A DNA stretch of 32,000 nucleotides from Dehalococcoidia bacterium (GTDB lineage Bacteria > Chloroflexota > Dehalococcoidia > Lucifugimonadales > JAGWBF01): contig JAGWBJ010000004.1 in NCBI GenBank assembly GCA_021295955.1, positions 1 to 32,000 on the forward strand, in the 5' to 3' direction. This document shows, piece by piece, positions 6,924 to 31,890 of this stretch (the first letter of the stretch is position 1; each line of letters begins with the position of its first letter). The position numbers were made by a program, and so were the translations under genes. The notes below the pieces were generated by a model. That model had not been told where the DNA came from. It ran no database searches and saw nothing but the letters and a program-made list of their open reading frames with translations.

Positions 6924-6930
6924 GGTGGGG

Positions 6931-8316
6931 ATGGCCGAAGAGTATGACGTAGCCGTCATAGGGGCGGGGCCGGGCGGCTACGTTGCGGCCATCAGGGCGG
7001 CCCAGTTGGGGTTGCGCACCGCCGTCGTCGAGCGGGAGGAGTTGGGCGGCGTCTGCCTGAACTGGGGATGCATCCCCAGCAAAGCCCTCCTCAGGAACGC
7101 CGAGGTCCTCTCCATCATCCACCGGGCCGGCGAGTTCGGCTTCGAGTTCGACAACCTGCGGGTGGACTACTCCAAAGCGGTGGACCGCAGCCGCTCGGTG
7201 GTGGACCGCAACACCAAGGGGATCGCCTACCTGCTCCGCAAGAACAAGATCGACCATATCAGGGGCGAGGCATCCCTGAGAGATGGTCAAACCTTGGAGG
7301 TCTCCCCTGACGGCAGGGTCCTCAAGGCGAAGAACGTTGTCCTCGCCACCGGGGCCCGGCCCCGCAGCATCCCATCCCTTCCCATCGATGGCGAGGTGGT
7401 GATGACCAGCCGCCACGCCCTGGCCCTGCGGCATCTCCCGGAATCGGTGGTGATTGTCGGCGCGGGGGCCACGGGGATGGAGTTCGCGTACCTGTACAAC
7501 GCCTATGGCGTGAAGGTCACCGTGGTGGAGGTGCTGCCTCGAACCGTTCCCAACGAGGACGAGGAGATCAGCAGGGCCCTGGAGCGGGCCCTGTCGCGAG
7601 AGGGAGTCACCTTCAACACTGGGTCCAGGGTCACCCAGCTCACCCACGCCAACGGGGGCGTCCGTCTTTCCGTGGAGTCCGATGGCAGGGCCGCAGAGTT
7701 AGACTGCGACAAGGTGCTGGTGGCCATCGGCGTCCAGCCCAACGTGGAGGACATGGGCCTGGAGCGGTTGGGTGTAGCCATGGACCGGGGCATGGTGCAG
7801 GTCGACGACGGAATGGCCACGAACGTACCGGGTATCTACGCCATAGGGGACGTCACCGGCAAGCTGCCGCTGGCCCACGTCGCCTCCGCCCAGGGGGTCG
7901 CCGCCGTGGAGACCATCGCCGGGGTCGAGACCCAACCACTGGACTACGTGAACATGCCCCGGGCCACCTACTGTGTTCCCCAGGTGGCCAGCTTCGGGCT
8001 CACCGAGCGGCAGGCCCGGGACCAGGGCTACGACGTGAAGGTGGGCAAGTTCCATTTCCAGGCCAGCGGAAAGGCCGCCGCCATCGGGGAGACCGCCGGG
8101 CTGGTCAAGCTGGTGGTAGAGGAGAAGTACGGCGAGGTTCTTGGGGCGCACATGGTCGGGCCCGAGGTGACCGAGATGCTGGCCGGGCTCTCCATCGCCC
8201 GCCTTCTCGAGGGGACCACCCTCGAGCTGGGATGGATGGTCTACTCCCATCCCAGCCTCTCCGAAGCGATCAAGGAGGCGGCGCTGGCCGCCGAGGGAAG
8301 GGCGGTACACAGCTGA
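6931..8316 (+). CDS. lpdA: Dihydrolipoyl dehydrogenase (E3)
   Basis: FAD motif VIGAGPGGY, redox-active disulfide GGVCLNWGCIPSK, NAD motif VVIVGAGATGMEFA, and C-terminal HPSLSE interface motif. ATG at 6931 is preferred over the GTG at 6925. Confidence 0.9.
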   Translation: MAEEYDVAVIGAGPGGYVAAIRAAQLGLRTAVVEREELGGVCLNWGCIPSKALLRNAEVLSIIHRAGEFGFEFDNLRVDYSKAVDRSRSVVDRNTKGIAYLLRKNKIDHIRGEASLRDGQTLEVSPDGRVLKAKNVVLATGARPRSIPSLPIDGEVVMTSRHALALRHLPESVVIVGAGATGMEFAYLYNAYGVKVTVVEVLPRTVPNEDEEISRALERALSREGVTFNTGSRVTQLTHANGGVRLSVESDGRAAELDCDKVLVAIGVQPNVEDMGLERLGVAMDRGMVQVDDGMATNVPGIYAIGDVTGKLPLAHVASAQGVAAVETIAGVETQPLDYVNMPRATYCVPQVASFGLTERQARDQGYDVKVGKFHFQASGKAAAIGETAGLVKLVVEEKYGEVLGAHMVGPEVTEMLAGLSIARLLEGTTLELGWMVYSHPSLSEAIKEAALAAEGRAVHS

Positions 8317-8427
8317 CGGGACGGGCCATCTGTAGTTTCTCGTCACTATCCTGTACAATAACGGGAGCCGACGGCCCCTGGGCCGAGGGCTTGCTGACCT
8401 GATCGACCTCTAAGGAGGGGTGGCCAC

Positions 8428-10206
8428 ATGGGCTCTAGAAACTACGACTTCGCGATGGGCATCGGCGGGGAGGCCGGACAGGGCATCGCCACTCCCGGCG
8501 ACATCCTGGCCCGGATATTCGTCCGCCGCGGCCTTCATCTCAATACCTACAACGCCTACCAGTCCATCATCCGAGGCGGGCACATCTTCCTAGTGGTGCG
8601 CGTCTCCGACGAGGAGCTGTACAGTCACGGGGACTCCATGGACCTGCTGCTGTGCCTGAACCAGGACACGATGGACCGCCACCTGGGCCTCATGGGCAGG
8701 GGAAGCCGTGTCGTGTACAACGGCGACAACATAAAGCCGGGAGACGCCCAGGAGGGCGCTCACCTGTGCCCGCTGCCCGTGGGAGAGCTTACCAACAGCC
8801 GCAACCGCCTGATGCAGAACACCGTGGCCGTGGGGTCCATCATATCCCTGATGGGGCTGGACTTCAGCATCCTGGAGGACAGCCTCAGGCTGCGGTTCGC
8901 GCGCCAGGGCGAGTCGGTGGTGGAGGAGAACGTCAGGGTGGCCCGGGCCGGGTACGACTACGCCGAGTCCAACTTTGAGCCCTTCCCCAAGGCCGCGCCC
9001 ATGGGCTCAACGCCCCAGGCGGTCTGGTCGGGCAACGAGGCCCTGGCCATGGGCGGGGCGGCGGCCGGGGTGAAGTTCTACGCGGCCTACCCGATGAGCC
9101 CCTCCACCGGAGTGCTCCACTGGATGGCCCAGAACGCCCGCAACCTGGGCATCATGGTACGGCAGGTGGAGGACGAGGTCGGCGTCGCCAACATGACCAT
9201 CGGCGCCGCCCACACGGGCGTCCGGGCCATGTGCGCCACCTCCGGAGGCGGGTTCGCCCTGATGACCGAGGCCGTGGGTAGCGCCGCTATGATGGAGATC
9301 CCGGTGGTGTTCATCGACGTCCAGCGGGCCGGCCCCTCCACCGGGGTGCCCACCAAGACGGAGCAGGGGGATCTGTGGCAGGTCCTGGGCGCCAGCCAGG
9401 GAGACTTCGAGCGGTTCATCGTTGCTCCTAAGGACGCCCTGGACGCCTTCAACACCGTCCCCGAGCTTTTCAACCTGGTGGACAAGGCCCAGTGCCCCGG
9501 GATAGTCATATCCGACCTGCTGATCTCCGAGGGCAGGTTCAGTTTTGACCCGGCGGACGTGGACATGCAGCCCCAGATCGACCGGGGAGACATTATCATG
9601 GAGCCCTCGGACACCGACGGCTACAAGCGCTACGCCGACACCGAGAACGGCATCTCCCCCCGGGCCTTGCCGGGGTTGGAGGGGTACGTCCACGTGGTCG
9701 CCACCGACGAGCACGACGAGGACTCGGTGCTCATCAGCGACGAGTTCACCAATCCCCACAAGCGCCGGAAGATGGTGGAGAAGAGGGCCCGCAAGTTCCA
9801 GGGGATTGTCAAGGCGGTCGCGCCGCCCGCCATCGAGGGCCCGGCGGACGCCGACGTGACCCTCATCGGCTGGGGCTCCTCCTACGGCGTGATCAAGGAG
9901 GCCATAGGCCAGCTGGCCGACAAGGGGGTTACAGCCAACCAGCTACCGATAAAGTGGATAGTCCCGTTCAACGGCGAGGCCGTCGTCGACATCGTGTCCA
10001 AGTGCAAACGGACCATCGTTGTGGAGAACAACTACTCCGGCCAGTTCTTCAGGTACATGCGCAGCGAGACCGGCCTGAACGTGGACGGACACATCCGAAA
10101 GTACGACGGCGAGCCCTTCATGCCCCACCACATCGTGGACGGGGTGCTGGAGCTGATGGCGGGCAAGACCACGTGCTACGTGCCCTATCAGGAAGTCATG
10201 GTATAA
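8428..10206 (+). CDS. korA: 2-oxoacid:ferredoxin (acceptor) oxidoreductase, fused gamma-alpha subunit
   Basis: N-terminal POR gamma-type domain (GGEAGQGI...), then the alpha domain (AAYPMSPSTG, EDEVGVANMTIGAAHTGVRAMCATSGGGFALM, QRAGPSTGVPTKTEQGDL). SD AAGGAGGGG upstream. Confidence 0.85.
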   Translation: MGSRNYDFAMGIGGEAGQGIATPGDILARIFVRRGLHLNTYNAYQSIIRGGHIFLVVRVSDEELYSHGDSMDLLLCLNQDTMDRHLGLMGRGSRVVYNGDNIKPGDAQEGAHLCPLPVGELTNSRNRLMQNTVAVGSIISLMGLDFSILEDSLRLRFARQGESVVEENVRVARAGYDYAESNFEPFPKAAPMGSTPQAVWSGNEALAMGGAAAGVKFYAAYPMSPSTGVLHWMAQNARNLGIMVRQVEDEVGVANMTIGAAHTGVRAMCATSGGGFALMTEAVGSAAMMEIPVVFIDVQRAGPSTGVPTKTEQGDLWQVLGASQGDFERFIVAPKDALDAFNTVPELFNLVDKAQCPGIVISDLLISEGRFSFDPADVDMQPQIDRGDIIMEPSDTDGYKRYADTENGISPRALPGLEGYVHVVATDEHDEDSVLISDEFTNPHKRRKMVEKRARKFQGIVKAVAPPAIEGPADADVTLIGWGSSYGVIKEAIGQLADKGVTANQLPIKWIVPFNGEAVVDIVSKCKRTIVVENNYSGQFFRYMRSETGLNVDGHIRKYDGEPFMPHHIVDGVLELMAGKTTCYVPYQEVMV

Positions 10207-10219
10207 GAGAGGTGACAGG

Positions 10220-11125
10220 ATGGCAGCTACCGTCGGCGTGGCCGAAGGCGAACCCGTTGTACAGCTAACCGCCAAGGACTTCAAGGGACCGGTCGATCCC
10301 GACTGGTGCCCCGGGTGCGGAGACTTTGGGGTCCTGAACAGCCTGCAAAGGGCGTGCGCCTCCCTGGGATTGAGGCCCCATGAGATACTCACCGTCAGTG
10401 GCATCGGATGTTCGTCCAACCTGCCTGGATACTTCAACGGCAACGGCATGCACACCCTCCACGGCCGCGCCCTGGCCGTGGCCACCGGCGCCAAGATGGC
10501 CAACCACGAGCTGACGGTCATCGCCACCGGCGGCGACGGGGACGGCTACGGCATCGGCGGCAACCACTTCGTGCACACCGCCCGCCGCAACGTGGACCTG
10601 ACGTACGTCGTCATGAACAACCAGATTTACGGGCTGACCACCGGCCAGCTCTCCCCTACCAGCAGCATAGGCATGCGCACCAAGAGCTCCCCCTTCGGCA
10701 GTGTGGAGATGCCGGTGAACCCCATCACCTCCGCCATAATGAACGGCGCAACCTACGTTGCCAGGGGGTACTCCGGAGACATCCGGCATCTGACCCAGCT
10801 CATCATCGACGGCATACAGCACGAGGGGTTCGCCCTGGTCGACGTGTTCAGTCCCTGCGTCACTTTCAACCTCGACAACGGACACAGCTTCTTCAAGGAG
10901 CGGGTTGTCAAGCTGGAGGACGAGGAGCATGATCCCACCGACTGGAAGCTGGCCTGCGAAAGGGCCATGGCCTGGGGAGACAAGATCTACACAGGCCTGT
11001 TCTTCAAGGAGGAGATCCCTACCCTGGGCAAGAGGGAGCCGGTGCTGGAGGAGGGCCCACTGGCGTTCAAGTCCCTTGGCCTGACCAAAGAGCAGGGGGA
11101 GAAGATCATCCAGCGGATGCTCTAG
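10220..11125 (+). CDS. korB: 2-oxoacid:ferredoxin oxidoreductase beta subunit (TPP-binding)
   Basis: WCPGCGDFGVL motif, TPP-binding GGDGDGYGIGGNH...MNNQIYGLTTGQ, and DVFSPCVTFN. It starts 13 nt after korA. Confidence 0.85.
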   Translation: MAATVGVAEGEPVVQLTAKDFKGPVDPDWCPGCGDFGVLNSLQRACASLGLRPHEILTVSGIGCSSNLPGYFNGNGMHTLHGRALAVATGAKMANHELTVIATGGDGDGYGIGGNHFVHTARRNVDLTYVVMNNQIYGLTTGQLSPTSSIGMRTKSSPFGSVEMPVNPITSAIMNGATYVARGYSGDIRHLTQLIIDGIQHEGFALVDVFSPCVTFNLDNGHSFFKERVVKLEDEEHDPTDWKLACERAMAWGDKIYTGLFFKEEIPTLGKREPVLEEGPLAFKSLGLTKEQGEKIIQRML

Positions 11126-11160
11126 CATCCCTCTTGGACTCCGCAAGACCCGGACTGCCC

Positions 11161-11188
11161 GAGCCGCCGGCAATACGCCCGGCGGCTC
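11161..11188 (+). terminator. Perfect 10-bp GC-rich stem-loop between korB and the E2 gene (terminator/attenuator-like, no U tract)
   Basis: GAGCCGCCGG (11161-11170), an 8-nt loop, then CCGGCGGCTC (11179-11188). A second 6-bp hairpin, CGCCCG-tgaca-CGGGCG, follows. Confidence 0.3.
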
Positions 11189-11260
11189 CGCCCTTGGTGT
11201 AGAATCGCCCGTGACACGGGCGGCCCGCCGTCCACCCCATGCCGGAGTCAGGAGGCAACC

Positions 11261-12475
11261 TTGGCGACCCAGATCGTGATGCCGCGGATGAACTACGACA
11301 TGCGGGAAGGCACCGTCGTCCGTTGGCACAAGGCCGAGGGGGACGTGGTGTCCCGCGGCGACGTCATCGCCGAGATCGAGACCGACAAGGCCACCGTGGA
11401 GATGGAGTCCTTCTGGGACGGCATCCTGGGGAGGATAGTCGTCGAGGAGGGGCGCGCCGTCCCCGTGGGAGAGGTGCTCGCGGTGATAACCGAGCCCGGA
11501 GAGGCCGCCCCGCCGGTGGAGTCGTTGCGGTTCCCACAGCCTTCTCCCTCTTCCCAGGGGAGCGAAGAGTCCACCGGCGCCGCTGGGCTAGGCCCGGGAC
11601 CGGAGTCCGCTGCCGATCCTCCCGCTCCACCTTCGGGTGTCAGGGCCAGCCCCATAGCCCGCCGCCTGGCCCGAGAGAGGGGGATCGACCTGGCGGCGGT
11701 CACGGGCACCGGGCCCGGGGGACGGGTGACCGAGACAGACGTGCTGGCCCACCAAGAAGGCCAGCTGGCCCCCGAGGCCGCCTCGGCGGGAGGCAGAATC
11801 GACCTGTCGCGGATGCGCCAGGCCATCGCCGGAGTCACCTCCCGGAGCAAGCGGGAGGTGCCCCATTTCTACGTCACCTCCGAGATAGACATGGACAGGG
11901 CTGTGGACCTGCGGGCTCAGCTCAACGATGCCGTTGGGGACGGACACGGGTCCCGGGTAAGCGTCAATGACCTGATCGTCAAGGCCGCGGCCAGGAGTCT
12001 GGAGAGGTTCCCCAAGTTCAACGCGTCATTCGAGGGCGACCACCTGGAGCTCCATGGGGACGTCAACATCGCCATAGCCGTCGCCCTGGAGGAGGGCCTG
12101 ATCCTTCCGGCCATCGCCGGGTGTCAGAAGAAGTCGCTGCGGGAGATCGCGGCGGCCAGTACCGACCTGGTCCAGCGCGCCCACGGCGGCACGCTGCGGG
12201 CGGAGGAGTACGCAGGTGGCACTTTCGCCGTCAGCAACCTGGGGATGTTCGACGTGGACAGCTTCGCCGCCATCATCTATCCCCCCAACGCCGCCGTCCT
12301 GGCCGTCGGCAGGGTCGCGGAGCAGCCCGTAGTGCGCAACGGCAGGGTGACCGTGGGGCACGTCATGAAGGCCACCCTCTCCGTGGACCACCGGGTAGCC
12401 GATGGCGCCGAGGGAGCGAGGTTCCTGAAGAACGTGAAGGGCCACCTGGAGAACCCGGTGAGCTTGCTGCTCTAG
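11261..12475 (+). CDS. Dihydrolipoamide acyltransferase (E2) with lipoyl, E1/E3-binding and catalytic domains
   Basis: Lipoyl-lysine motif EIETDKATVEMES, PSBD ASPIARRLARERGIDLAAVTGTGPGGRVTETDV, and catalytic DHRVADGAEGARFL. TTG start 5 nt after SD AGGAGG. Confidence 0.85.
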   Translation: MATQIVMPRMNYDMREGTVVRWHKAEGDVVSRGDVIAEIETDKATVEMESFWDGILGRIVVEEGRAVPVGEVLAVITEPGEAAPPVESLRFPQPSPSSQGSEESTGAAGLGPGPESAADPPAPPSGVRASPIARRLARERGIDLAAVTGTGPGGRVTETDVLAHQEGQLAPEAASAGGRIDLSRMRQAIAGVTSRSKREVPHFYVTSEIDMDRAVDLRAQLNDAVGDGHGSRVSVNDLIVKAAARSLERFPKFNASFEGDHLELHGDVNIAIAVALEEGLILPAIAGCQKKSLREIAAASTDLVQRAHGGTLRAEEYAGGTFAVSNLGMFDVDSFAAIIYPPNAAVLAVGRVAEQPVVRNGRVTVGHVMKATLSVDHRVADGAEGARFLKNVKGHLENPVSLLL

Positions 12476-22399: not shown

Positions 22400-23023
22400 T
22401 TGCGTCATTATGAGCTGGTAGTTGTGCTGAGTCCCATCCTGTCCCAGGAGGAGGCCGCCGGGGAGTGGGACCGCATCAAGTCCCTGGTGCATCGGAACGG
22501 CGGCGGAGACCCCTACGAAGAGCGTTGGGGCATGAGGAGGCTAGCCTACCCGATAAAGAAGGCTGGGCAGACCTTCCTGGAGGGCAACTATCTCCTCACC
22601 CGTTTCAGCTCGGACACCGTGGTGCCTCCCGAGCTGGAGGGCCACCTGAGGCTTTCGGAGAGCGTCCTCCGGTACCTCCTCACCAAGTCAGGCCCCCCCG
22701 AGTCGACGCCCCCGTCGCCGCAGATGGTCCAGATGGCCCGGGCCGCCGAAATCCGTCAGCAGCAGGCCGCCGCGGCACAGGCCGCCGCCGCTGCTACGGC
22801 CCAGGAGGCCGAGCAGTCCTCCGCTGCCGCTACGGCCCAGGAGGCCGAGCAGTCCTTCGCTGCCGCTACGGTCCAGGAGGCAGAGCAGCCCTCCGCCTCC
22901 GCCGACGTGCTCGAGGAGCAGGCCCCTGCGGATGGCGCGCCCGCCGGCGAAGGCGCGGTCGAGGAGCCGGCGGAAGAGGCCCCGGCGGAAGAGGCCCCGG
23001 CTGCCGCCCAGGAGCCGGAGTAG
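22400..23023 (+). CDS. rpsF: 30S ribosomal protein S6 with a long Ala/Glu/Gln-rich repeat extension
   Basis: MRHYELVVVLSP...WGMRRLAYPIKK...GNYLL...VLRYLL is the canonical S6 core (about 97 aa), followed by a low-complexity tail of about 110 aa. TTG start. Confidence 0.85.
   Translation: MRHYELVVVLSPILSQEEAAGEWDRIKSLVHRNGGGDPYEERWGMRRLAYPIKKAGQTFLEGNYLLTRFSSDTVVPPELEGHLRLSESVLRYLLTKSGPPESTPPSPQMVQMARAAEIRQQQAAAAQAAAAATAQEAEQSSAAATAQEAEQSFAAATVQEAEQPSASADVLEEQAPADGAPAGEGAVEEPAEEAPAEEAPAAAQEPE
22793..22900 (+). repeat. Three 36-nt in-frame tandem repeats inside the rpsF tail (ATAQEAEQSSAA units)
   Basis: The three units are 22793-22828, 22829-22864 and 22865-22900. Units 1 and 2 differ at 1 nt. 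Unit 3 differs at a few positions. A further 15-nt duplication (CCGGCGGAAGAGGCC x2) lies near 22969-22998. Confidence 0.85.
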
Positions 23024-26385: not shown

Positions 26386-26489
26386 TCGCCGGCCGGCCGT
26401 TGGGAAGGGCCCTTTCCGCCCCGGACTCTGCTGCCCGACGGGAATCGGCGCCGGCGGCGGATGGGTCTAGCCAAGCCCCCTGTAGTGTG

Positions 26490-26495
26490 TATAAT
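26490..26495 (+). promoter_or_regulatory. Candidate -10 box upstream of the folE leader
   Basis: A perfect TATAAT at 26490-26495 in the hom-folE intergenic region, with no convincing -35. Confidence 0.3.
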
Positions 26496-26556
26496 AACTG
26501 AGGTTGGGAGCAGGGGCTCCGGCGGCCACAAACCCCAGGAGGTGAACACCGCGCTT

Positions 26557-26655
26557 ATGGATCCGGCTCCCAGAAAGATGCCCGGAAGGATGCCCGGAAG
26601 GATGCCCGGAAGGATGCCCGGAAGGATGCCCGGAAGGATGAAGGAGGATGGTTGA
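26557..26655 (+). CDS. Putative upstream/leader ORF MDPAPRK(MPGR)5MKEDG, overlapping the folE start
   Basis: ATG at 26557. The frame is maintained through the 12-nt repeats. TGA at 26653-26655 lies 5 nt after the folE ATG (ATGGTTGA). The longer listed ORF from 26461 is less likely. Translation is unproven. Confidence 0.35.
   Translation: MDPAPRKMPGRMPGRMPGRMPGRMPGRMKEDG
26578..26637 (+). repeat. Five perfect 12-nt tandem repeats (ATGCCCGGAAGG) immediately upstream of folE
   Basis: Exact head-to-tail copies at 26578, 26590, 26602, 26614 and 26626. Degenerate copies flank the array (CCCAGAAAG before, ATGAAGGAGG after). Confidence 0.95.
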
Positions 26656-27220
26656 GGGGCAAGCCGTCGAGACGGCGGTCGCCTCCATCCTGAAGGCCTT
26701 AGGCGAAGACGCGGGCAGGGAGGGGCTTAGAGACACACCTCGGCGGGTCGCCCGCATGTACTCCGAGCTGTTCTCAGGCGTCGGCGTAGACCCCCGCTCG
26801 GCCATCGATGCCATCTTCGAAGAAGAGCGTCACGAAGAGGCTGTGGTGGTCCTACGGGGTGTTCCCTTCTACTCCATGTGTGAACACCATCTGATGCCGT
26901 TCTACGGGCAGGCCCACATGGGGTACGTTCCCAAGAGCAAGATAGCCGGCGCCAGCAAGCTGGTTCGTGCCCTCGAGGTCGCCGCCCGCAGGCCGCAGAT
27001 ACAGGAGAGGCTCACGGCGCAAGTGGCGGACGCGGTCCATGACGTCTTGGACACGGCGGGGACCGGCGTCGTCATCGAGGCCGAGCACCTGTGCATGTCC
27101 ATGAGAGGGGTGCAGAAGCGCGGCAGCGTCGTCGTCACGTCGGCGACCCGTGGCGATTTCGACGAGGCCGGAGTCCGCCGCTCCCAGCTAATGTCTATGG
27201 TCCAAGGGCGGGCCGCGTGA
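26648..27220 (+). CDS. folE: GTP cyclohydrolase I (FolE type 1)
   Basis: GLRDTPRRVARMY, FYSMCEHHLMPFYGQAHMGYVP, RPQIQERLT and IEAEHLCMSMRGV are the canonical FolE motifs, including the Zn ligands. Confidence 0.9.
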   Translation: MVEGQAVETAVASILKALGEDAGREGLRDTPRRVARMYSELFSGVGVDPRSAIDAIFEEERHEEAVVVLRGVPFYSMCEHHLMPFYGQAHMGYVPKSKIAGASKLVRALEVAARRPQIQERLTAQVADAVHDVLDTAGTGVVIEAEHLCMSMRGVQKRGSVVVTSATRGDFDEAGVRRSQLMSMVQGRAA

Positions 27221-28200
27221 CCCCCTTTACGCGTCTCGATTCCTACCAGGGTGCTCGGGCCCACTGGGAGGCCCTTCTCCCGTGTTGCATTGCCAACACC
27301 TTCTTCATGACGCCCCAATGGCAGCAGGCCTGGTGGGACCAGTTCGGCGACGGGACCGAGATGATGCTGCTGGAACTGATGGAGCACGGCGGGGTGACGT
27401 GCATCGCCCCGCTGGCGAGAAGGGATCGCACCATCTCCTTCATCGGCGGCCAGGACCTGTTCGACTACAACGACTTCCTCGTGTCTCCCGGCTCCGAGGA
27501 CAGCTTCTACACGTCCCTGATGGACCTGCTGGACGATGAGGACTGGGATACCGTCGACCTGCCGTCTCTTCAGGACGGGTCTCCCACCCTGACCTACGTG
27601 CCGGACTTGGCCCAACGCCTGGGATACTCGGTCCAGATCGAAGAGGAGGACGTGGCGCCGTCGGTGATGCTGCCGGCGGACTGGGACTCGTACCTCCAGC
27701 TCCTGAGCAAGAAGGACCGTCACGAGCTGCGTCGAAAGCTGCGGCGCCTGGGGTCCTCCGGCCAGGAGGTCCACCACTACAAGCTCTCGGATCCGGCGGA
27801 GGTGGAGGCGGGACTGGACGACTTCTTCTCCCTGATGAGATTCAGCAAGGAGACCAAGGACACCTTCTTGACCCCAGGCCGGGAGAGCTTCTTCCGCAGC
27901 GCCGCCCTGGCGATGGCCAGGATCGGGGTATTCAGGCTGTTCTTCCTGGAGTTCAACCAGGAGCGGGTGGCCGCGGCCATGTGCTTCGACTACGGCGATA
28001 CCAGACACCTGTACAACAGCGGCTTCAACCCCGAGTATCGCTACTATAGCGTCGGCCTCGTTCTGAAGGCCCTTTGCGTGAAGGACGCCATAGAGGAGGG
28101 CAAGGCCCGCTTTGATTTCCTGAGAGGGGCCGAACCGTACAAGTACGACCTGGGTGGCAAGGACCGGACGATCTATCACATGGTGGTCAGACGCAGTTGA
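27217..28200 (+). CDS. GNAT-fold protein of the CelD/BioF2-like (Acetyltransf_6, FemAB-related) family
   Basis: N-terminal W..L......FF.TP.W...WW..FG and the C-terminal family signature YNSGFNPEY...SVG...FDFLRGAEPYKYDLGG. The GTG start overlaps the folE stop (GTGA). Only this start keeps the conserved N-terminus. Confidence 0.75.
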   Translation: MTPFTRLDSYQGARAHWEALLPCCIANTFFMTPQWQQAWWDQFGDGTEMMLLELMEHGGVTCIAPLARRDRTISFIGGQDLFDYNDFLVSPGSEDSFYTSLMDLLDDEDWDTVDLPSLQDGSPTLTYVPDLAQRLGYSVQIEEEDVAPSVMLPADWDSYLQLLSKKDRHELRRKLRRLGSSGQEVHHYKLSDPAEVEAGLDDFFSLMRFSKETKDTFLTPGRESFFRSAALAMARIGVFRLFFLEFNQERVAAAMCFDYGDTRHLYNSGFNPEYRYYSVGLVLKALCVKDAIEEGKARFDFLRGAEPYKYDLGGKDRTIYHMVVRRS

Positions 28201-29393
28201 GCGCGGCCCGAGTCGCCCTGTTAAGCTTCCACACCTGCCCCCTGGCTCCCACCGGCGAGGGGAAGGCCGGCGGCATGAACGTCTACGTGCGTGAGGTGTC
28301 CCGGAATCTCGGCAGGGCCGGCGTCCCCGTCGACCTCTTCACACGCAGCCACGCCGGGCACTGCCAGGGCGTCACGAACCTGGAGGACAACGTCAGGCTG
28401 GTGCACCTGGAGGGTGGGCCGGAGACCGCGGCCCCCAACGAGTTGTATCCGTACCTGGAGTCCTTCCTGGAAGGGCTGGTCGCCCATGCCCGGCAGGAGG
28501 CCGTCCGGTACCGGCTGGTGCACTCCCACTACTGGCTGTCGGGCTGGATCGGCCAGCGCCTGTCCAGCCGGTGGCGGGTGCCCCACGTCGTCACCTTCCA
28601 CACCCTGGGAGACGTGAAGATGCAGGCCAAGGCCGGCGAGAGGGAGTCCGACCAGCGGGGCTCGGTGGAGAGGGAGCTTGCCTCCGGGGCGCATCTGATA
28701 ATCGCCTCCAGTCCCCACGAGGAGGACGCGCTGGTCCATCTCTACGACGCGGACCGGGGCCGCATCGAGGTAGTGCCCTGTGGCGTGGACCTGTCCATCT
28801 TCAAGCCCCTGGACATCGGCGAGGCCCGAAAGCGCCTGGGCCTGAACGGAGAGCGCGTCGTGCTCTATGTCGGGCGGATCGAGGCTATCAAGGGTGTGGA
28901 CCTTCTGTTGAAGAGTGCTGCTATAATGGATGGCAAGGACTCCCTGAAAGTTCTGGTCGTGGGAGGCGATGCGACCCGGGGCGGGGAGGTGAGGCGGCTC
29001 AAGGGCCTGGCCGAGGAGTTGGGCATCGGGCAGGTGATGGAGTTCGTCGGCATGGTGGACCAGAGCCTGCTGCCCCTCTACTACAACGCCGCGGACGTGT
29101 GTGTCGTCCCATCCTACTACGAGAGCTTTGGACTCGTAGCCTTGGAGGCCCTGGCCTGCGGCACTCCGGTGGTGGCCTCCAGGGTGGGAGGTCTGCCGAC
29201 GGTGGTCCAGCATGCCAGGACGGGTTACCTCCAGTCCTGGCGGTGCCCCGAGCCCTTCGCCGACTCCCTGGAGGTAATCCTGGGCAGCAAGGTGCTCAGG
29301 AACAGCATGAGCAGGGAAGCCCGCAAGAGGGCCGAGGGCATGGGGTGGGAGATGGTCGCGGAAGAGACCAGCCGCCTTTACGATTCCCTGTAG
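28197..29393 (+). CDS. mshA: GT4 glycosyltransferase of the MshA family (D-inositol-3-phosphate N-acetylglucosaminyltransferase-like)
   Basis: MshA-specific blocks LLSFHTCPLAPTGEGKAGGMNVYV, HSHYWLSG, FHTLGDVK and HLYDADRGRIEVVPCGVD, plus the GT4 core ESFGLVALEALACGTPVVASRVGGLP. The TTG start overlaps the preceding stop (TTGA). Confidence 0.75.
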   Translation: MSAARVALLSFHTCPLAPTGEGKAGGMNVYVREVSRNLGRAGVPVDLFTRSHAGHCQGVTNLEDNVRLVHLEGGPETAAPNELYPYLESFLEGLVAHARQEAVRYRLVHSHYWLSGWIGQRLSSRWRVPHVVTFHTLGDVKMQAKAGERESDQRGSVERELASGAHLIIASSPHEEDALVHLYDADRGRIEVVPCGVDLSIFKPLDIGEARKRLGLNGERVVLYVGRIEAIKGVDLLLKSAAIMDGKDSLKVLVVGGDATRGGEVRRLKGLAEELGIGQVMEFVGMVDQSLLPLYYNAADVCVVPSYYESFGLVALEALACGTPVVASRVGGLPTVVQHARTGYLQSWRCPEPFADSLEVILGSKVLRNSMSREARKRAEGMGWEMVAEETSRLYDSL

Positions 29394-29414
29394 GCCCGTC
29401 AGGAGACCCCGACA

Positions 29415-30146
29415 GTGCCCTCACAGCCTCCCAAGATAGCCAAGTGGTTGGCGCTCATCGGCCGTCATTTCCGCACGAGACTGCTGGGCGGCCTGCTGCT
29501 CATCGTCCCGGTAGGCATCACCTTCCTGATCCTGAAGGCCATCTTCGACTTCTTGGACCCATTGTTGAAGGACTTCATGGACCAGTTCATCACCGTCTAT
29601 CCCGGCATGGGCATAGTCGCGCTGGTCATCGTCGTCTACCTGGCCGGGATCCTGGCGACGCAGGTCGTGGGAAAGCGGATCATCGACTTGGGCATCAACG
29701 TGGTGGACCGGATACCCGTGGTCAGCGGCGTCTACCGGGCCGCCCGCCAGGCCACCGACGTGTTCTCCAACGTGGCCGGGAACGGCAGATACAGCAGCGT
29801 GGTCCTGGTGGAGTTTCCGGGCTACGGCCTCACGTCGGTGGGTCTGGTCACGGGGAAGATAAAGGACCAGAAGGGCAACGACCTACTGGCCGTATACATG
29901 CCCACGTCGCCCTTCCCCACCTCTGGGTTTCTGATAATCCTGCCCGAGGACCAGGTCACCCCCACCGACCTGGCGGTGGACGACGCCATAAAGATGATAG
30001 TCACCGCCGGGGTGGTAGTCCCCGATTCCATCGACGCCGACTACTACCCCTTCCAGCACGCGCCGTCGGTGGCGCGTAGGGCCAGTCCTGTCGGCGTGAC
30101 TATGGAGGAGACTCAGTCCGCGGACAATGTCTCCTCGAACCAGTGA
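29415..30146 (+). CDS. DUF502 family membrane protein
   Basis: Two N-terminal TM helices (LLGGLLLIVPVGITFLILKAIF, GMGIVALVIVVYLAGILA). DUF502 core motifs RIPVVSGVYRAARQ, VVLVEFP, YMPTSPFPTSGFLIILP and AIKMIVTAG. GTG start 9 nt after AGGAG. Confidence 0.7.
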   Translation: MPSQPPKIAKWLALIGRHFRTRLLGGLLLIVPVGITFLILKAIFDFLDPLLKDFMDQFITVYPGMGIVALVIVVYLAGILATQVVGKRIIDLGINVVDRIPVVSGVYRAARQATDVFSNVAGNGRYSSVVLVEFPGYGLTSVGLVTGKIKDQKGNDLLAVYMPTSPFPTSGFLIILPEDQVTPTDLAVDDAIKMIVTAGVVVPDSIDADYYPFQHAPSVARRASPVGVTMEETQSADNVSSNQ

Positions 30147-31018
30147 AGCCTGGCCTCTTCCCGGAAGCCCACCGACGTGTAGAGCCCTATGGCCGGCGCG
30201 TTCTCGCTGTCCACTTCTAGCTGGATAGACCCCACGCCCCTGGCCCTCATGTGCTCCATCCCGCGCAGCAGCAACGGCTTGCTCAGCCCCTGGCCCCGGT
30301 ATTCCGGCACCACTCCGATCATGGAGATGAACCCCACCGAGCGGCCGGGGGCTCCCATAATGCGCGTCCAGCAGTACCCGGCAACGGCGTCGTCCCGCCG
30401 CAGGAGGAGCACCCCTTCGGGTCCCGTGCCGGTCATGGCGACCCTGTAGGCCACCTCCTCCGTTGTGTTGGGGCTGAATCCCCAGCTTCCCGTGAAGGCC
30501 TCGTTCTGCGCCATGGTGAGGAGGTGTTCCTCCCCGGGCCTCAGGCTTCGTAGCTCGAAGCCATCGGGGAGCTCCGGCCTGACGAGCTCCGGTCGCCGCC
30601 ACCTCAACACCAGGTACTCCCGGACTTTCGAGAACCCGTTGCTCTCCAGCAGGCCGGCCCAACGCTCCGGGTCGTATACACAGACGTGGACGTAGTCGGC
30701 GCCCAACTCCCCGGCCCTGTCCAGGCTGGACCGCATAAGTAGCGACTCCACACCCGTCCACGCGTGGTGGGGGTGGACGTTCAACTCCAGCACGGCCCGG
30801 CCGATACGGAGCTCGGGGTGCACTATCGCGAAGCCCACGGGGCCTTCCTCGCCTACGGCCACCGTGCAGTTGGCCTCGGGGCATAGCCCAGGCTGGCCCA
30901 GCTCCTCTTCGAGCAGCTTGTTGGGAAGGGCGTCCTCCTCGCCGCCGGCCCGTCGGAGCAGGTTCTTTAGGTCGGCCAGCGCTGGCAGGTCGGACCACGT
31001 GAAATTTCGCGTTCTCAA
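30113..31018 (-). CDS. mshD: Tandem-GNAT acetyltransferase of the mycothiol synthase (MshD) family
   Basis: Two GNAT halves with MshD-like blocks: LELNVHPHH, VREYLVLRWRRPELVRPELPDGFELRSL, NEAFTGSWGFSP, GYCWTRI, MIGVVPEYRGQGLSKPLL and QLEVDSENAPAIGLYTSVGF. The TTG start at 31018 is preceded by AGGGAG. The longer listed ORF (to 31270) has no homology-like N-terminus. Confidence 0.65.
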   Translation of the reverse strand: MRTRNFTWSDLPALADLKNLLRRAGGEEDALPNKLLEEELGQPGLCPEANCTVAVGEEGPVGFAIVHPELRIGRAVLELNVHPHHAWTGVESLLMRSSLDRAGELGADYVHVCVYDPERWAGLLESNGFSKVREYLVLRWRRPELVRPELPDGFELRSLRPGEEHLLTMAQNEAFTGSWGFSPNTTEEVAYRVAMTGTGPEGVLLLRRDDAVAGYCWTRIMGAPGRSVGFISMIGVVPEYRGQGLSKPLLLRGMEHMRARGVGSIQLEVDSENAPAIGLYTSVGFREEARLHWFEETLSAD

Positions 31019-31185
31019 AGCAGGGCTCCCTAAGGGCGGGCTGGAAACGGGGTCCGTAGCGGACACGGACCCTATGGAGAACCCCCATCGGGCATGTCCC
31101 GGCGGTCCGGGAGGGGGGTTGACACTCGCGCTTGATTGTAGCAGAGTGGTTTTCCCCGTACAAGCCCAAAGTGGGAGGCTGCCCC

Positions 31186-31890
31186 ATGGACGAGACGCCC
31201 GGCCGCGTGCTGGTTGTGATACCCCATCCCGATGATGCCGAGGGGTGGTGCGGTGGTACCGTCGCAGCATGGGTGAAGGGCGGCGCCCGGGTGGTCTACG
31301 TTCTCTGTACGGACGGGAGCAAGGGCACCGACGACCCCGAGATGTCCCCCCAGCGCCTGGCCCAGATCAGGGAGAAGGAGCAGCTCGAAGCGGCCTCCGT
31401 CCTGGGCGTGGAGGACGTGGTGCTCCTGCGCCATGCCGACGGAGAGCTGGAGGACACTTACGAATTTCGCAGGGAGCTCGTCCGTGCCATTCGCCTCCAC
31501 CGGCCGGACGTGATACTGTGCCCCGACCCGTACCGGCGCAAGTCCCACTGGCACAGGGACCACCGCATCGCCGGTCAGGTCGCGGCCGACGCCGCCTTTC
31601 CCTACGCCCGGGACCACCTGCACTTCCAGGAGCTGTACCGTGACGAGGGACTGGAGACGCACAAGGCGGGCACTATCCTTTTTTGGGCCCCCGACACCCC
31701 CGACACCCACATCGACATCGGCGGGCACATCGACACCAAGGCCCGGGCGCTGGTGTGCCACCAGAGCCAGAACCCGGGTAGGACCGTGGAACAGGCGGCG
31801 GAGGGAATAAGCCAGCGCGCCCGCCTGTCGGCTGCAGGCTCCCAGGTGGAGTATGCCGAGGCGTTTCGAAAGGTGGAGTTCCGCCGCTAG
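31186..31890 (+). CDS. PIG-L/LmbE family deacetylase (MshB/BshB-like)
   Basis: VLVVIPHPDDAEGWCGGTVA, the DG..ED region and HRDHR metal/catalytic motifs typical of PIG-L. ATG 31186 lies 7 nt after GGGAGG. Confidence 0.8.
   Translation: MDETPGRVLVVIPHPDDAEGWCGGTVAAWVKGGARVVYVLCTDGSKGTDDPEMSPQRLAQIREKEQLEAASVLGVEDVVLLRHADGELEDTYEFRRELVRAIRLHRPDVILCPDPYRRKSHWHRDHRIAGQVAADAAFPYARDHLHFQELYRDEGLETHKAGTILFWAPDTPDTHIDIGGHIDTKARALVCHQSQNPGRTVEQAAEGISQRARLSAAGSQVEYAEAFRKVEFRR

Follow-up and report, generated by a model that had tools for sequence, protein, structure and literature searches.

How a bacterium might assemble a mycothiol-like compound without the ligase of that pathway is the question raised by a gene cluster at 26.6–31.9 kb of a 32 kb stretch of DNA from a Dehalococcoidia bacterium (Lucifugimonadales; JAGWBF01; assembly GCA_021295955.1, contig JAGWBJ010000004.1, positions 1–32,000, forward strand), which we refer to as a whole as the window. 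Mycothiol synthesis needs MshA, a phosphatase (MshA2), MshB (of the PIG-L family), MshC (a CysRS-like ligase) and MshD; the genes for these proteins are dispersed in actinobacteria, and mycothiol is regarded as restricted to Actinobacteria. A sequence-only reading of the window had picked out a GT4 glycosyltransferase with MshA-diagnostic blocks, a tandem-GNAT protein matching MshD and a PIG-L deacetylase, all in a compact cassette with no MshC, and had proposed that a CelD-like GNAT-fold protein encoded beside them carries out a non-canonical ligation step. All of these genes lie where that reading had placed them, together with a DUF502 gene that it did not mention. The host is GC-rich (~66%), and the close homologues all come from metagenome-assembled genomes of Dehalococcoidia, SAR202 or Chloroflexota.

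The reading that we prefer, and to which we would give roughly even odds (a probability of about 0.5), is that these genes encode a class-wide conserved pathway which follows the chemical logic of mycothiol and bacillithiol synthesis, with a different enzyme for the amide-forming step. The product would probably be an amino-acid-decorated glucosamine-inositol compound resembling mycothiol. This reading is carried by the family-level identities of the genes, by their conserved clustering and by the Fem-like fold of the CelD-like protein. Judged by profile scores, the family resemblances are far beyond chance, yet all three matches to Msh proteins fall below the curated equivalog cutoffs.

Conservation of the gene cluster

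The four genes that are central to this reading are as follows.

27217–28200, plus strand: CelD/BcsL-like PF13480 gene, 327 amino acids, GTG start (PF13480, 103.3 bits against a cutoff of 22)
28197–29393, plus strand: gene for a retaining GT4 glycosyltransferase, 398 amino acids, TTG start (TIGR03449, 373.6 bits)
30113–31018, minus strand: gene for a tandem-GNAT acetyltransferase, 301 amino acids, TTG start (TIGR03448, 96.6 bits)
31186–31890, plus strand: gene for a PIG-L/LmbE-family zinc de-N-acetylase, 234 amino acids (PF02585, 106.6 bits)

When an alignment of the CelD-like family was scanned against one genome per GTDB species, relatives were found in at least 591 species, including SAR202, and the best 80 species with such a relative are all Dehalococcoidia or Chloroflexota. 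The neighbourhoods were compared across 81 non-redundant Dehalococcoidia loci with CelD-like proteins that are 42–62% identical, by clustering their open reading frames (ORFs) with a tblastn cross-check. The GT4 gene is found directly 3′ of the CelD-like gene in 80 of these 81 loci, the exception being a contig of 2.7 kb, and by extrapolated distance the two genes abut or overlap in 27 loci (≤ 0 nt) and lie 1–60 nt apart in 34. Within 10 kb downstream, PIG-L is present in 55 of the 81 loci, DUF502 in 53 (where it comes after GT4), the tandem GNAT in 34 (always on the opposite strand) and a PHP phosphatase in 18. Seventy loci extend for 6 kb or more downstream, and 64 of them have one or more of PIG-L, tandem GNAT and PHP phosphatase. 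The order of the genes varies, with PIG-L directly 3′ of GT4 in nine loci and the PHP gene in that position in three, and the members may be shuffled and yet stay together, as in locus L068. The PHP phosphatase belongs to the CpsB/CapC family (PF19567, 182 bits) and usually abuts PIG-L or GT4, often with a 4-nt overlap; the loci that have it include L033, L035, L043, L057, L064, L066, L067, L070–L072, L075, L082 and L083, and it is a candidate for the sugar-phosphate phosphatase step. As an adjacent phosphatase in the lineage of the window we rejected it: the genes that come after PIG-L in a 95%-identical relative are prmC and prfA.

These adjacency counts need to be read with care, as the surrounding region is syntenic across the class and this inflates them. 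The gene directly 5′ of the CelD-like gene, for instance, is folE in 64 of the 81 loci and thrC in most of the 17 others. Sixteen loci lack the upstream ssb and hom genes; the pair of CelD-like and GT4 genes is kept in all 16, along with the tandem GNAT in 11, the PHP phosphatase in nine and PIG-L in six, and folE is still directly 5′ of the CelD-like gene in 11. Because gene order varies within the set that is kept, because the pair survives the loss of synteny and because it recurs in unrelated contexts, we attribute the clustering to selection rather than to inertia. The genes thus form a real, selected cluster in which the CelD-like gene is most tightly coupled to the GT4 gene, often translationally, and the proposed compact cassette holds up well, both in the adjacency to GT4 and in the retention of the pair where the flanking synteny has been lost.

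The unrelated contexts are four more distant loci (L088, L089, L090 and L093, from a total of 93), which have 42–60% GC and CelD-like proteins 35–43% identical to the window protein. Their GT4s belong to the same MshA-like family (299–380 bits). L088, a Dehalococcoidales chromosome, carries the CelD-like gene, GT4, the tandem GNAT on the minus strand and PIG-L, followed by a glutaredoxin-PDZ gene; L090 (labelled Deltaproteobacteria) and L093 carry the CelD-like and GT4 genes, with a DinB_2/MST-family gene nearby in L093. In L089 (GCA_040960625.1, 5799–10007) a single strand carries a gene for inositol-3-phosphate synthase (ino1), the CelD-like gene, GT4 and PIG-L. The alignment of the synthase covers the whole of TIGR03450 (432.9 bits), and this operon, the strongest single pointer of this kind, suggests inositol phosphate as the acceptor. 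PF13480 is a very large family, and the CelD-like subfamily is itself large, its profile matching 2,702 clusters (50% identity) at E ≤ 1e-30. More distant PF13480 proteins (L091 and L092) have no GT4 neighbour, so the association with GT4 belongs to this subfamily and not to all of PF13480.

The fold of the CelD-like protein

The CelD-like protein lies well above the threshold of PF13480 (Acetyltransf_6; CelD/BcsL, COG5653), and JGI labels its homologues 'CelD/BcsL family acetyltransferase'. An AlphaFold2 model built with 25 family members as input has a pLDDT of 93.3 and a pTM of 0.90. The best Foldseek match to this model is Weissella FemX (1xf8; E 5.6e-13, TM 0.69), and the further top matches are Sbb17/Sba18 with streptothrisamine bound (TMq 0.56–0.59, TMt 0.63–0.66), FemX and FemA of S. 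aureus and the aminoacyl-phosphatidylglycerol synthase domains of MprF, so that the top structural matches are all aminoacyl-tRNA-dependent transferases. Acetyl-CoA-dependent tandem GNATs, including MAB_4324 and a glucosamine N-acetyltransferase, match more weakly (TM 0.40–0.47), and MshD is not among the top 50 matches.

According to a 2026 review, the hallmarks of Fem-type proteins are a pair of GNAT domains that flank the substrate site, a helix of positive charge that binds tRNA and a lysine that acts in catalysis (K305 in FemX, K329 in DhpH-C); the same review describes the Fem-like Orf11, which uses Gly-tRNA to attach glycine to the streptothrisamine amino sugar (PMC12945691). Among 82 sequences of the CelD-like family, a basic helix ('KKDRHELRRKLRRL', residues 165–179) at the N-terminal edge of GNAT domain 2, between the GNAT halves, is at least 95% conserved, as are 'LYNSG', the C-terminal 'Y308-K309..LG' and, in the N-terminal half, a number of Trp and Asp residues. 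From their positions in the model we infer that the helix and K309 may be the counterparts of the tRNA-binding helix and the catalytic lysine. The earlier description of this protein as a Fem-related GNAT-fold protein agrees with the model, which is closest to Fem/MprF-type transferases and among them to one that aminoacylates an amino sugar. With its modelled double-GNAT fold of Fem type, the protein is a candidate for the enzyme that would attach an aminoacyl or acyl group to the amine of the deacetylated sugar. Our literature search returned no report of an aminoacyl-tRNA-dependent member of PF13480, nor of a defined aminoacyl-transfer chemistry for this family.

The glycosyltransferase and its probable acceptor

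MshA is by far the best curated model for the GT4, which aligns over its full length with TIGR03449 (E 1.1e-111) at a score that stays short of the equivalog cutoff of 462.5 bits. On the same model, MshA from C. glutamicum (CgMshA) scores 714.8 bits and the sucrose-phosphate synthase (SPS) of Thermosynechococcus (TeSPS) 287.1 bits, four Dehalococcoidia homologues of the GT4 score 340–400 bits and the relatives overall 299–400 bits. A search of the PDB with the GT4 gave an exact tie between CgMshA (3c48) and TeSPS (6kih) at 266.9 bits each. Scores against other families were 48 bits for the phosphatidylinositol mannosyltransferase PimB′ (PDB), 74.5 bits for the GlcNAc-PG synthase model, 96.9 bits for the SPS N-domain model and 100 bits for BshA (TIGR03999), the last against a cutoff of 273.7. 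The GT4 does carry 'SFHTCPLAPTGEGKAGGMNVYV' and 'VHSHYWLSGW', the two blocks that the sequence-only reading took to be diagnostic of MshA, but they are so only in part, given that a proven SPS reaches 287 bits and that Lys78 of MshA is replaced by Pro in the window protein.

An alignment of 81 family members with CgMshA and TeSPS (CgMshA numbering) allows the active site to be compared more closely. Tyr110, His133, Thr134, Lys139, Arg154, Glu316 and Glu324 are invariant in the family, among them the catalytic set of H133, K139, E316 and E324. We take Lys78, Tyr110, Thr134 and Arg154 to be the ligands with which MshA holds the phosphate of inositol phosphate, a list that reportedly goes back to the MshA structure of Vetting et al. 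2008. SPS also has Y110 and R154, with Ser at position 134, and these residues therefore indicate a phospho-acceptor and not inositol specifically. The GGMN loop has Met in 81 of 81 family members, as in MshA, where TeSPS has Gln (GGQN). That Gln hydrogen-bonds fructose in TeSPS (PMC7264703). The GT4 thus belongs, by its sequence, to the MshA/SPS clade of phospho-acceptor GT4s, within which sequence alone is insufficient to call it MshA. The adjacent PIG-L gene argues for an N-acetylated sugar donor, unlike that of SPS, and we predict that the GT4 probably transfers GlcNAc from UDP-GlcNAc to inositol phosphate.

Gene starts affect how these proteins appear in databases. In L084, the 95%-identical relative of the window, the automated gene call (11059–12177) starts the GT4 26 codons late, giving a protein of 372 amino acids that has lost the catalytic HTxPL...GGMN loop, and the gene caller also truncated the N-terminus of the GT4 in L089. 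The TTG start at 28197 restores the full alignment of the window GT4 with the MshA model.

The deacetylase, the acetyltransferase and the search for a ligase

The PIG-L protein is a clear member of its family, with a score far above the PF02585 cutoff of 28.2 bits and with its metal motifs HPDD ('PHPDD') and HRDH intact and conserved in 56 sequences. Its likeness to MshB is slight: the match to TIGR03445 covers only the N-terminus and amounts to 27.7 bits (cutoff 224.35), and MshB structures score 22 bits. Among the curated models it fits BshB1 best (TIGR04001; 94 bits for a cutoff of 182.5), and in the PDB it comes closest to a diacetylchitobiose deacetylase (8bgn, 119.7 bits). The place of this protein in an Msh-like set was therefore well founded as far as family and motifs go but not as regards the MshB subtype, and its scores make it a candidate GlcNAc-glycoside deacetylase of BshB/Dac rather than MshB type.

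The true tandem-GNAT gene encodes 301 amino acids from a TTG at 31018 with a GGGAG motif upstream, shorter than the 385-amino-acid ORF, and this start agrees with the gene call in the 95%-identical relative. Its product aligns with positions 38–287 of the 294 in the MshD model (TIGR03448), at a score below the cutoff of 163.1 bits, and the homologue in L088 scores 94.6 bits on the same model. In the PDB the window protein comes nearer to two uncharacterised tandem GNATs, 7q3a and 3tt2, than to MshD (1ozp/2c27, about 230 residues aligned). A match to Acetyltransf_1 and an 'RGQG' in the C-terminal half put the acetyl-CoA motif where MshD has it. What survives of the match to MshD is thus a likeness in architecture, and these sequence features make the protein a candidate for the N-acetylation that would complete the pathway. 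Its homologues bear the automatic IMG name 'mycothiol synthase', an annotation that the scores do not justify.

A Pfam search that covered every sizeable ORF in the 32 kb and gave no CysRS-like domain bears out the absence of an MshC-type gene from the cassette. The 45 ORF clusters that recur most often in the 81 neighbourhoods include no CysRS-like gene either, and tblastn of the 93 loci with an E. coli CysS query found nothing, a result that had no positive control and counts weakly.

A possible pathway

Taken together, these identities allow a pathway to be sketched, the step order, substrates, tRNA donor and amino acid of which we infer. The GT4 would place GlcNAc, from UDP-GlcNAc, on a phosphorylated polyol, most likely 1L-myo-inositol-1-phosphate, and a phosphatase, which in some relatives may be the cluster-encoded PHP phosphatase of CpsB type, would then strip the phosphate. 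PIG-L would de-N-acetylate the sugar and so expose the amine of glucosamine, which the CelD-like Fem-type enzyme would aminoacylate, with an aminoacyl-tRNA as the most likely donor and an acyl-CoA as a less likely one. Where the tandem GNAT is present it would acetylate the new alpha-amine, and loci with no nearby tandem GNAT might give an uncapped product of bacillithiol-like kind. Aminoacylation followed by capping is the simplest way to account for a deacetylase together with two acyltransferases, because re-acetylation of the same amine would be futile. The suggestion that the CelD-like protein serves as a non-canonical ligation enzyme is strengthened by the clustering, the Fem-like fold and the ino1 operon of L089, but the Msh labels given to its partners were overstated.

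A number of observations weigh against this pathway. PIG-L is not nearby in 19 of the 70 loci with sufficient downstream sequence and the tandem GNAT in 38 of the 70, and ino1 is adjacent in only one of the 93 loci (L089) and is not in the window. The tightest coupling is that between the CelD-like and GT4 genes, which would act at non-consecutive steps in the proposed order, and DUF502 and the CpsB-family phosphatase might instead be signs of a product of the cell envelope. In one low-GC clade (L087, 31% GC, 7001–9566) the genes run hom, thrC, CelD-like, DUF502 and tandem GNAT (minus strand) with no GT4 among them, so the CelD-like gene is separable from GT4. For the GT4 itself, the score on the MshA model lies between those of SPS and true MshA, and Lys78 of MshA is matched by Lys in only 38 of the 81 family members, the window protein having Pro instead. 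A PDB search gave only chance matches, whether the query was the CelD-like sequence by itself or the family profile, so the link to Fem proteins is drawn from structure; the CelD-like protein has no match to FemAB (PF02388) and reaches 15.8 bits on FemAB_like (PF04339), below the cutoff of 27, and the putative equivalence of K309 with FemX K305 is one of position. PF13480 also includes BspF, which carries the NCBIfam name crotonyl transferase and presumably uses an acyl-CoA donor, and neither membership of the family nor the fold therefore specifies the donor.

Alternative explanations

It is conceivable, although in our view rather unlikely, that the cluster makes an envelope glycoconjugate or glycolipid, with the GT4 acting on the head group of a phospholipid, phosphatidylinositol for example, or on a polymer primer, PIG-L freeing the amine, as in the synthesis of GPI anchors or GlcN-lipids, and the CelD-like protein N-acylating or aminoacylating it. 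DUF502 is a membrane protein and occurs in 53 of the 81 clusters, the phosphatase belongs to a capsule family (PF19567, 182 bits), CelD/BcsL proteins are annotated with cellulose synthesis, and the close structural matches FemX and MprF work on envelope precursors and membrane-bound substrates. The combination of GT4 and PIG-L is also the logic of glycosylphosphatidylinositol-anchor synthesis (PMC12182360), for which, however, the Pfam search gave no PIGA domain match, and the adjacent ino1 is compatible with a phosphatidylinositol-based lipid too. Against an envelope product, the GT4 is much nearer to the soluble-acceptor enzymes MshA and TeSPS (267 bits each) than to PimB′ (48) or the GlcNAc-PG synthase model (74.5); the 45 commonest ORF clusters in the 81 neighbourhoods include no tyrosine kinase, Wzx/Wzy or polyprenyl-phosphate transferase family; and a tandem GNAT of MshD architecture better suits the capping of a small molecule. 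Ordinary mycothiol synthesis by divergent MshA, MshB and MshD, with a canonical MshC encoded elsewhere and the CelD-like protein unrelated or accessory, seems to us quite improbable. The scores are well below the cutoffs (373.6 against 462.5, 96.6 against 163.1 and 27.7 against 224.35), the deacetylase is of BshB/Dac and not MshB type, and the CelD-like gene, were it unrelated, could hardly be expected to accompany the GT4 more constantly than any other gene, as its neighbour in 80 of the 81 loci and in four unrelated contexts. Mycothiol is, moreover, taken to be confined to Actinobacteria, and we found no paper tying it to Dehalococcoidia. This explanation does draw on the curated models, of which MshA fits the GT4 best and MshD the tandem GNAT, on the IMG name given to homologues of the latter, and on the dispersal of msh genes in actinobacteria, which makes a distant mshC not unusual.

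The position of folE raises the further idea of a pterin glycoside, for which folE would supply the precursor, the GT4 would add GlcNAc to the side chain of neopterin or biopterin, PIG-L would deacetylate it and the GNATs would decorate it. Such compounds exist, solfapterin being a neopterin glucosaminide and limipterin and tepidopterin biopterin N-acetylglucosaminides, and folE overlaps the CelD-like gene by 4 nt and lies directly upstream of it in 64 of the 81 loci, including 11 of the 16 rearranged ones. We nonetheless think this very improbable: folE is a housekeeping gene in a conserved hom-thrC-folE block, it is absent in 17 loci, in most of which thrC abuts the CelD-like gene, as well as from L088, L089, L090 and L093 (ino1 takes that position in L089), and the neighbourhoods hold no other pterin-pathway gene. 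That the genes share no pathway, and are neighbours merely through the conserved gene order of Dehalococcoidia, we find scarcely credible. The block of glyA-rpsF-ssb-rpsR-hom-thrC-folE, and on to the downstream rplJ and rplA, is indeed syntenic in many loci, but the pair (often a triad) survives rearrangement in all 16 loci without ssb and hom and recurs in four unrelated contexts of 42–60% GC, start and stop codons overlap, members are shuffled yet together (L068), and the family-level functions make a chemically coherent series.

Relation to known systems and significance

The cluster is best described as belonging to neither the mycothiol nor the bacillithiol pathway, and as a variant of their logic with a Fem-type transferase at ligation. 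It shares with mycothiol synthesis a GT4 for which MshA is the best model and which has the GGMN, HSHYW and HT motifs, a deacetylase of the PIG-L family, a tandem GNAT of MshD architecture and, in one relative, ino1 within the cluster, and the same series of chemical steps is plausible. It differs in that none of the Msh-like proteins attains its equivalog cutoff, the deacetylase is of another subtype than MshB, the host is a member of the Chloroflexota, a Fem-type double-GNAT protein is the constant partner where no CysRS-like MshC is found in the cluster, and the genes lie together, often with translational coupling, whereas those of actinobacteria are dispersed. Bacillithiol synthesis (BshA, BshB and BshC) likewise combines a GT4, a PIG-L deacetylase and the addition of an amino acid to GlcN; BshB1 is the best model for the PIG-L protein, and more than half of the loci have no nearby acetyltransferase, so that the product might keep a free amine. 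The GT4 is, however, far from BshA (100 against 273.7 bits), the PIG-L protein scores 94 against 182.5 bits, no BshC-like gene was seen, and the acceptor would probably be inositol phosphate and not malate.

The comparison extends to the FemABX proteins (FemX, PacB, VlmA, DhpH-C and Orf11/Sbb17) and MprF, with which the CelD-like protein shares a double-GNAT fold and, to judge by position, may also share a basic helix and a C-terminal Y-K motif, and among which Orf11/Sbb17 provides a precedent for aminoacylation of an amino-sugar amine. Unlike them it belongs to PF13480, and its sequence gives no detectable link to the FemAB family of Pfam or to any Fem protein of solved structure. The unidomain cyanobacterial SPS (TeSPS, 6kih) is as similar to the GT4 as CgMshA is, with the phosphate-binding Arg, the catalytic His/Glu and the YWLSG block in common; it has GGQN where the GT4 has GGMN, and the SPS N-domain model gives the GT4 only 96.9 bits.

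We know of no major low-molecular-weight thiol, or equivalent small glycoside conjugate, in Chloroflexota, and a literature search found nothing on this cluster nor on a low-molecular-weight thiol in Chloroflexi/Dehalococcoidia. The cluster is thus a concrete candidate pathway for a small glycoside conjugate of Chloroflexota, in at least 591 species-level genomes including SAR202. If the CelD-like protein does carry out a tRNA-dependent reaction on an amino sugar, then Fem-type chemistry would extend from cell walls and antibiotics into core small-molecule metabolism, and if cysteine is the amino acid added, this would be an independent solution to the step of MshC and of BshC, the mechanism of the latter being, to our knowledge, still unclear. 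A more specific proposal, which we put forward as doubtful, is that Dehalococcoidia, including the abundant marine SAR202, make an undescribed low-molecular-weight thiol, (N-acetyl-)cysteinyl-glucosaminyl-inositol or a close analogue, with cysteine from Cys-tRNA added by a Fem-type PF13480 transferase in place of a CysRS-like ligase. Were that so, a convergent, tRNA-dependent way of making a mycothiol-like redox buffer would exist outside Actinobacteria and CelD/BcsL would gain its first defined biochemical role. The only hints of a thiol product are weak ones from two distant loci. The glutaredoxin-PDZ fusion gene of L088 (11164–11640) stands 3′ of PIG-L, a single case that fits thiol chemistry or coincidence, and the DinB_2/MST-family gene of L093 (5022–5537; PF12867, PF04978), of a family that we take to include thiol S-transferases, stands about 1.5 kb 5′ of the pair, also a single case and maybe coincidence.

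Organisation of the locus and other observations

The remaining features of the cluster in the window are listed here.

26468–26495, plus strand: match to a sigma-70-like promoter 5′ of folE, which might serve the operon (10 of 12 hexamer positions)
26648–27220, plus strand: folE, GTP cyclohydrolase I (PF01227, 223 bits; TIGR00063, 213.6 bits, above the cutoff of 181.6)
29415–30146, plus strand: gene for a DUF502 membrane protein (PF04367, 84.2 bits)
31019–31185, no strand: divergent intergenic region of 167 bp that separates the tandem-GNAT and PIG-L genes

Start and stop codons overlap by 4 nt at both the folE/CelD-like (GTGA) and the CelD-like/GT4 junctions, and no terminator-like site was found between the genes from folE to DUF502, the sole plus-strand match (27282–27299) being inside the CelD-like gene. 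Because of these overlaps, the lack of an intergenic terminator-like site and the promoter-like site 5′ of folE, the plus-strand genes look like one operon; the site at 26468–26495 is itself weak evidence, as the promoter scan found one site where 0.7 would be expected by chance. folE is the first gene of this apparent operon and an uncertain member of the pathway. PIG-L is transcribed divergently from the tandem GNAT, as had been noted, and the promoter scan gave no consensus match in the 167 bp between them. The DUF502 and tandem-GNAT genes are convergent and their 3′ ends overlap by 34 nt (30113–30146); many relatives have a comparable overlap, L004, L005, L007 and L020 among them.

A housekeeping block of glyA, rpsF, ssb, rpsR, a SurA_N-like gene and hom lies 5′ of the cluster. 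In most relatives thrC (threonine synthase) stands between hom and folE, a place that it does not occupy in the window or in L084, where a PALP-domain gene about 7 kb downstream could be thrC. The 262-bp gap between hom and folE (26386–26647), the place of thrC in 72 of the 81 relatives, contains in the window a 12-nt tandem repeat, CCCGGAAGGATG, at 26569–26640, directly 5′ of the folE start, with six copies in perfect register and 96% matches; each unit holds GGAAGGA and then TG.

Further upstream in the window, a flavoprotein disulfide reductase (6925–8316) was considered as a mycothione reductase and rejected, being an ordinary dihydrolipoyl dehydrogenase (TIGR01350, 563.7 bits, above the cutoff of 408.8). 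The product of rpsF (22400–23023) is a ribosomal protein S6 of 207 amino acids with a long C-terminal extension rich in Ala, Glu and Gln, which is made of 36-nt and 15-nt tandem repeats (22778–22896 and 22961–23001; 'AATAQEAEQS' units).

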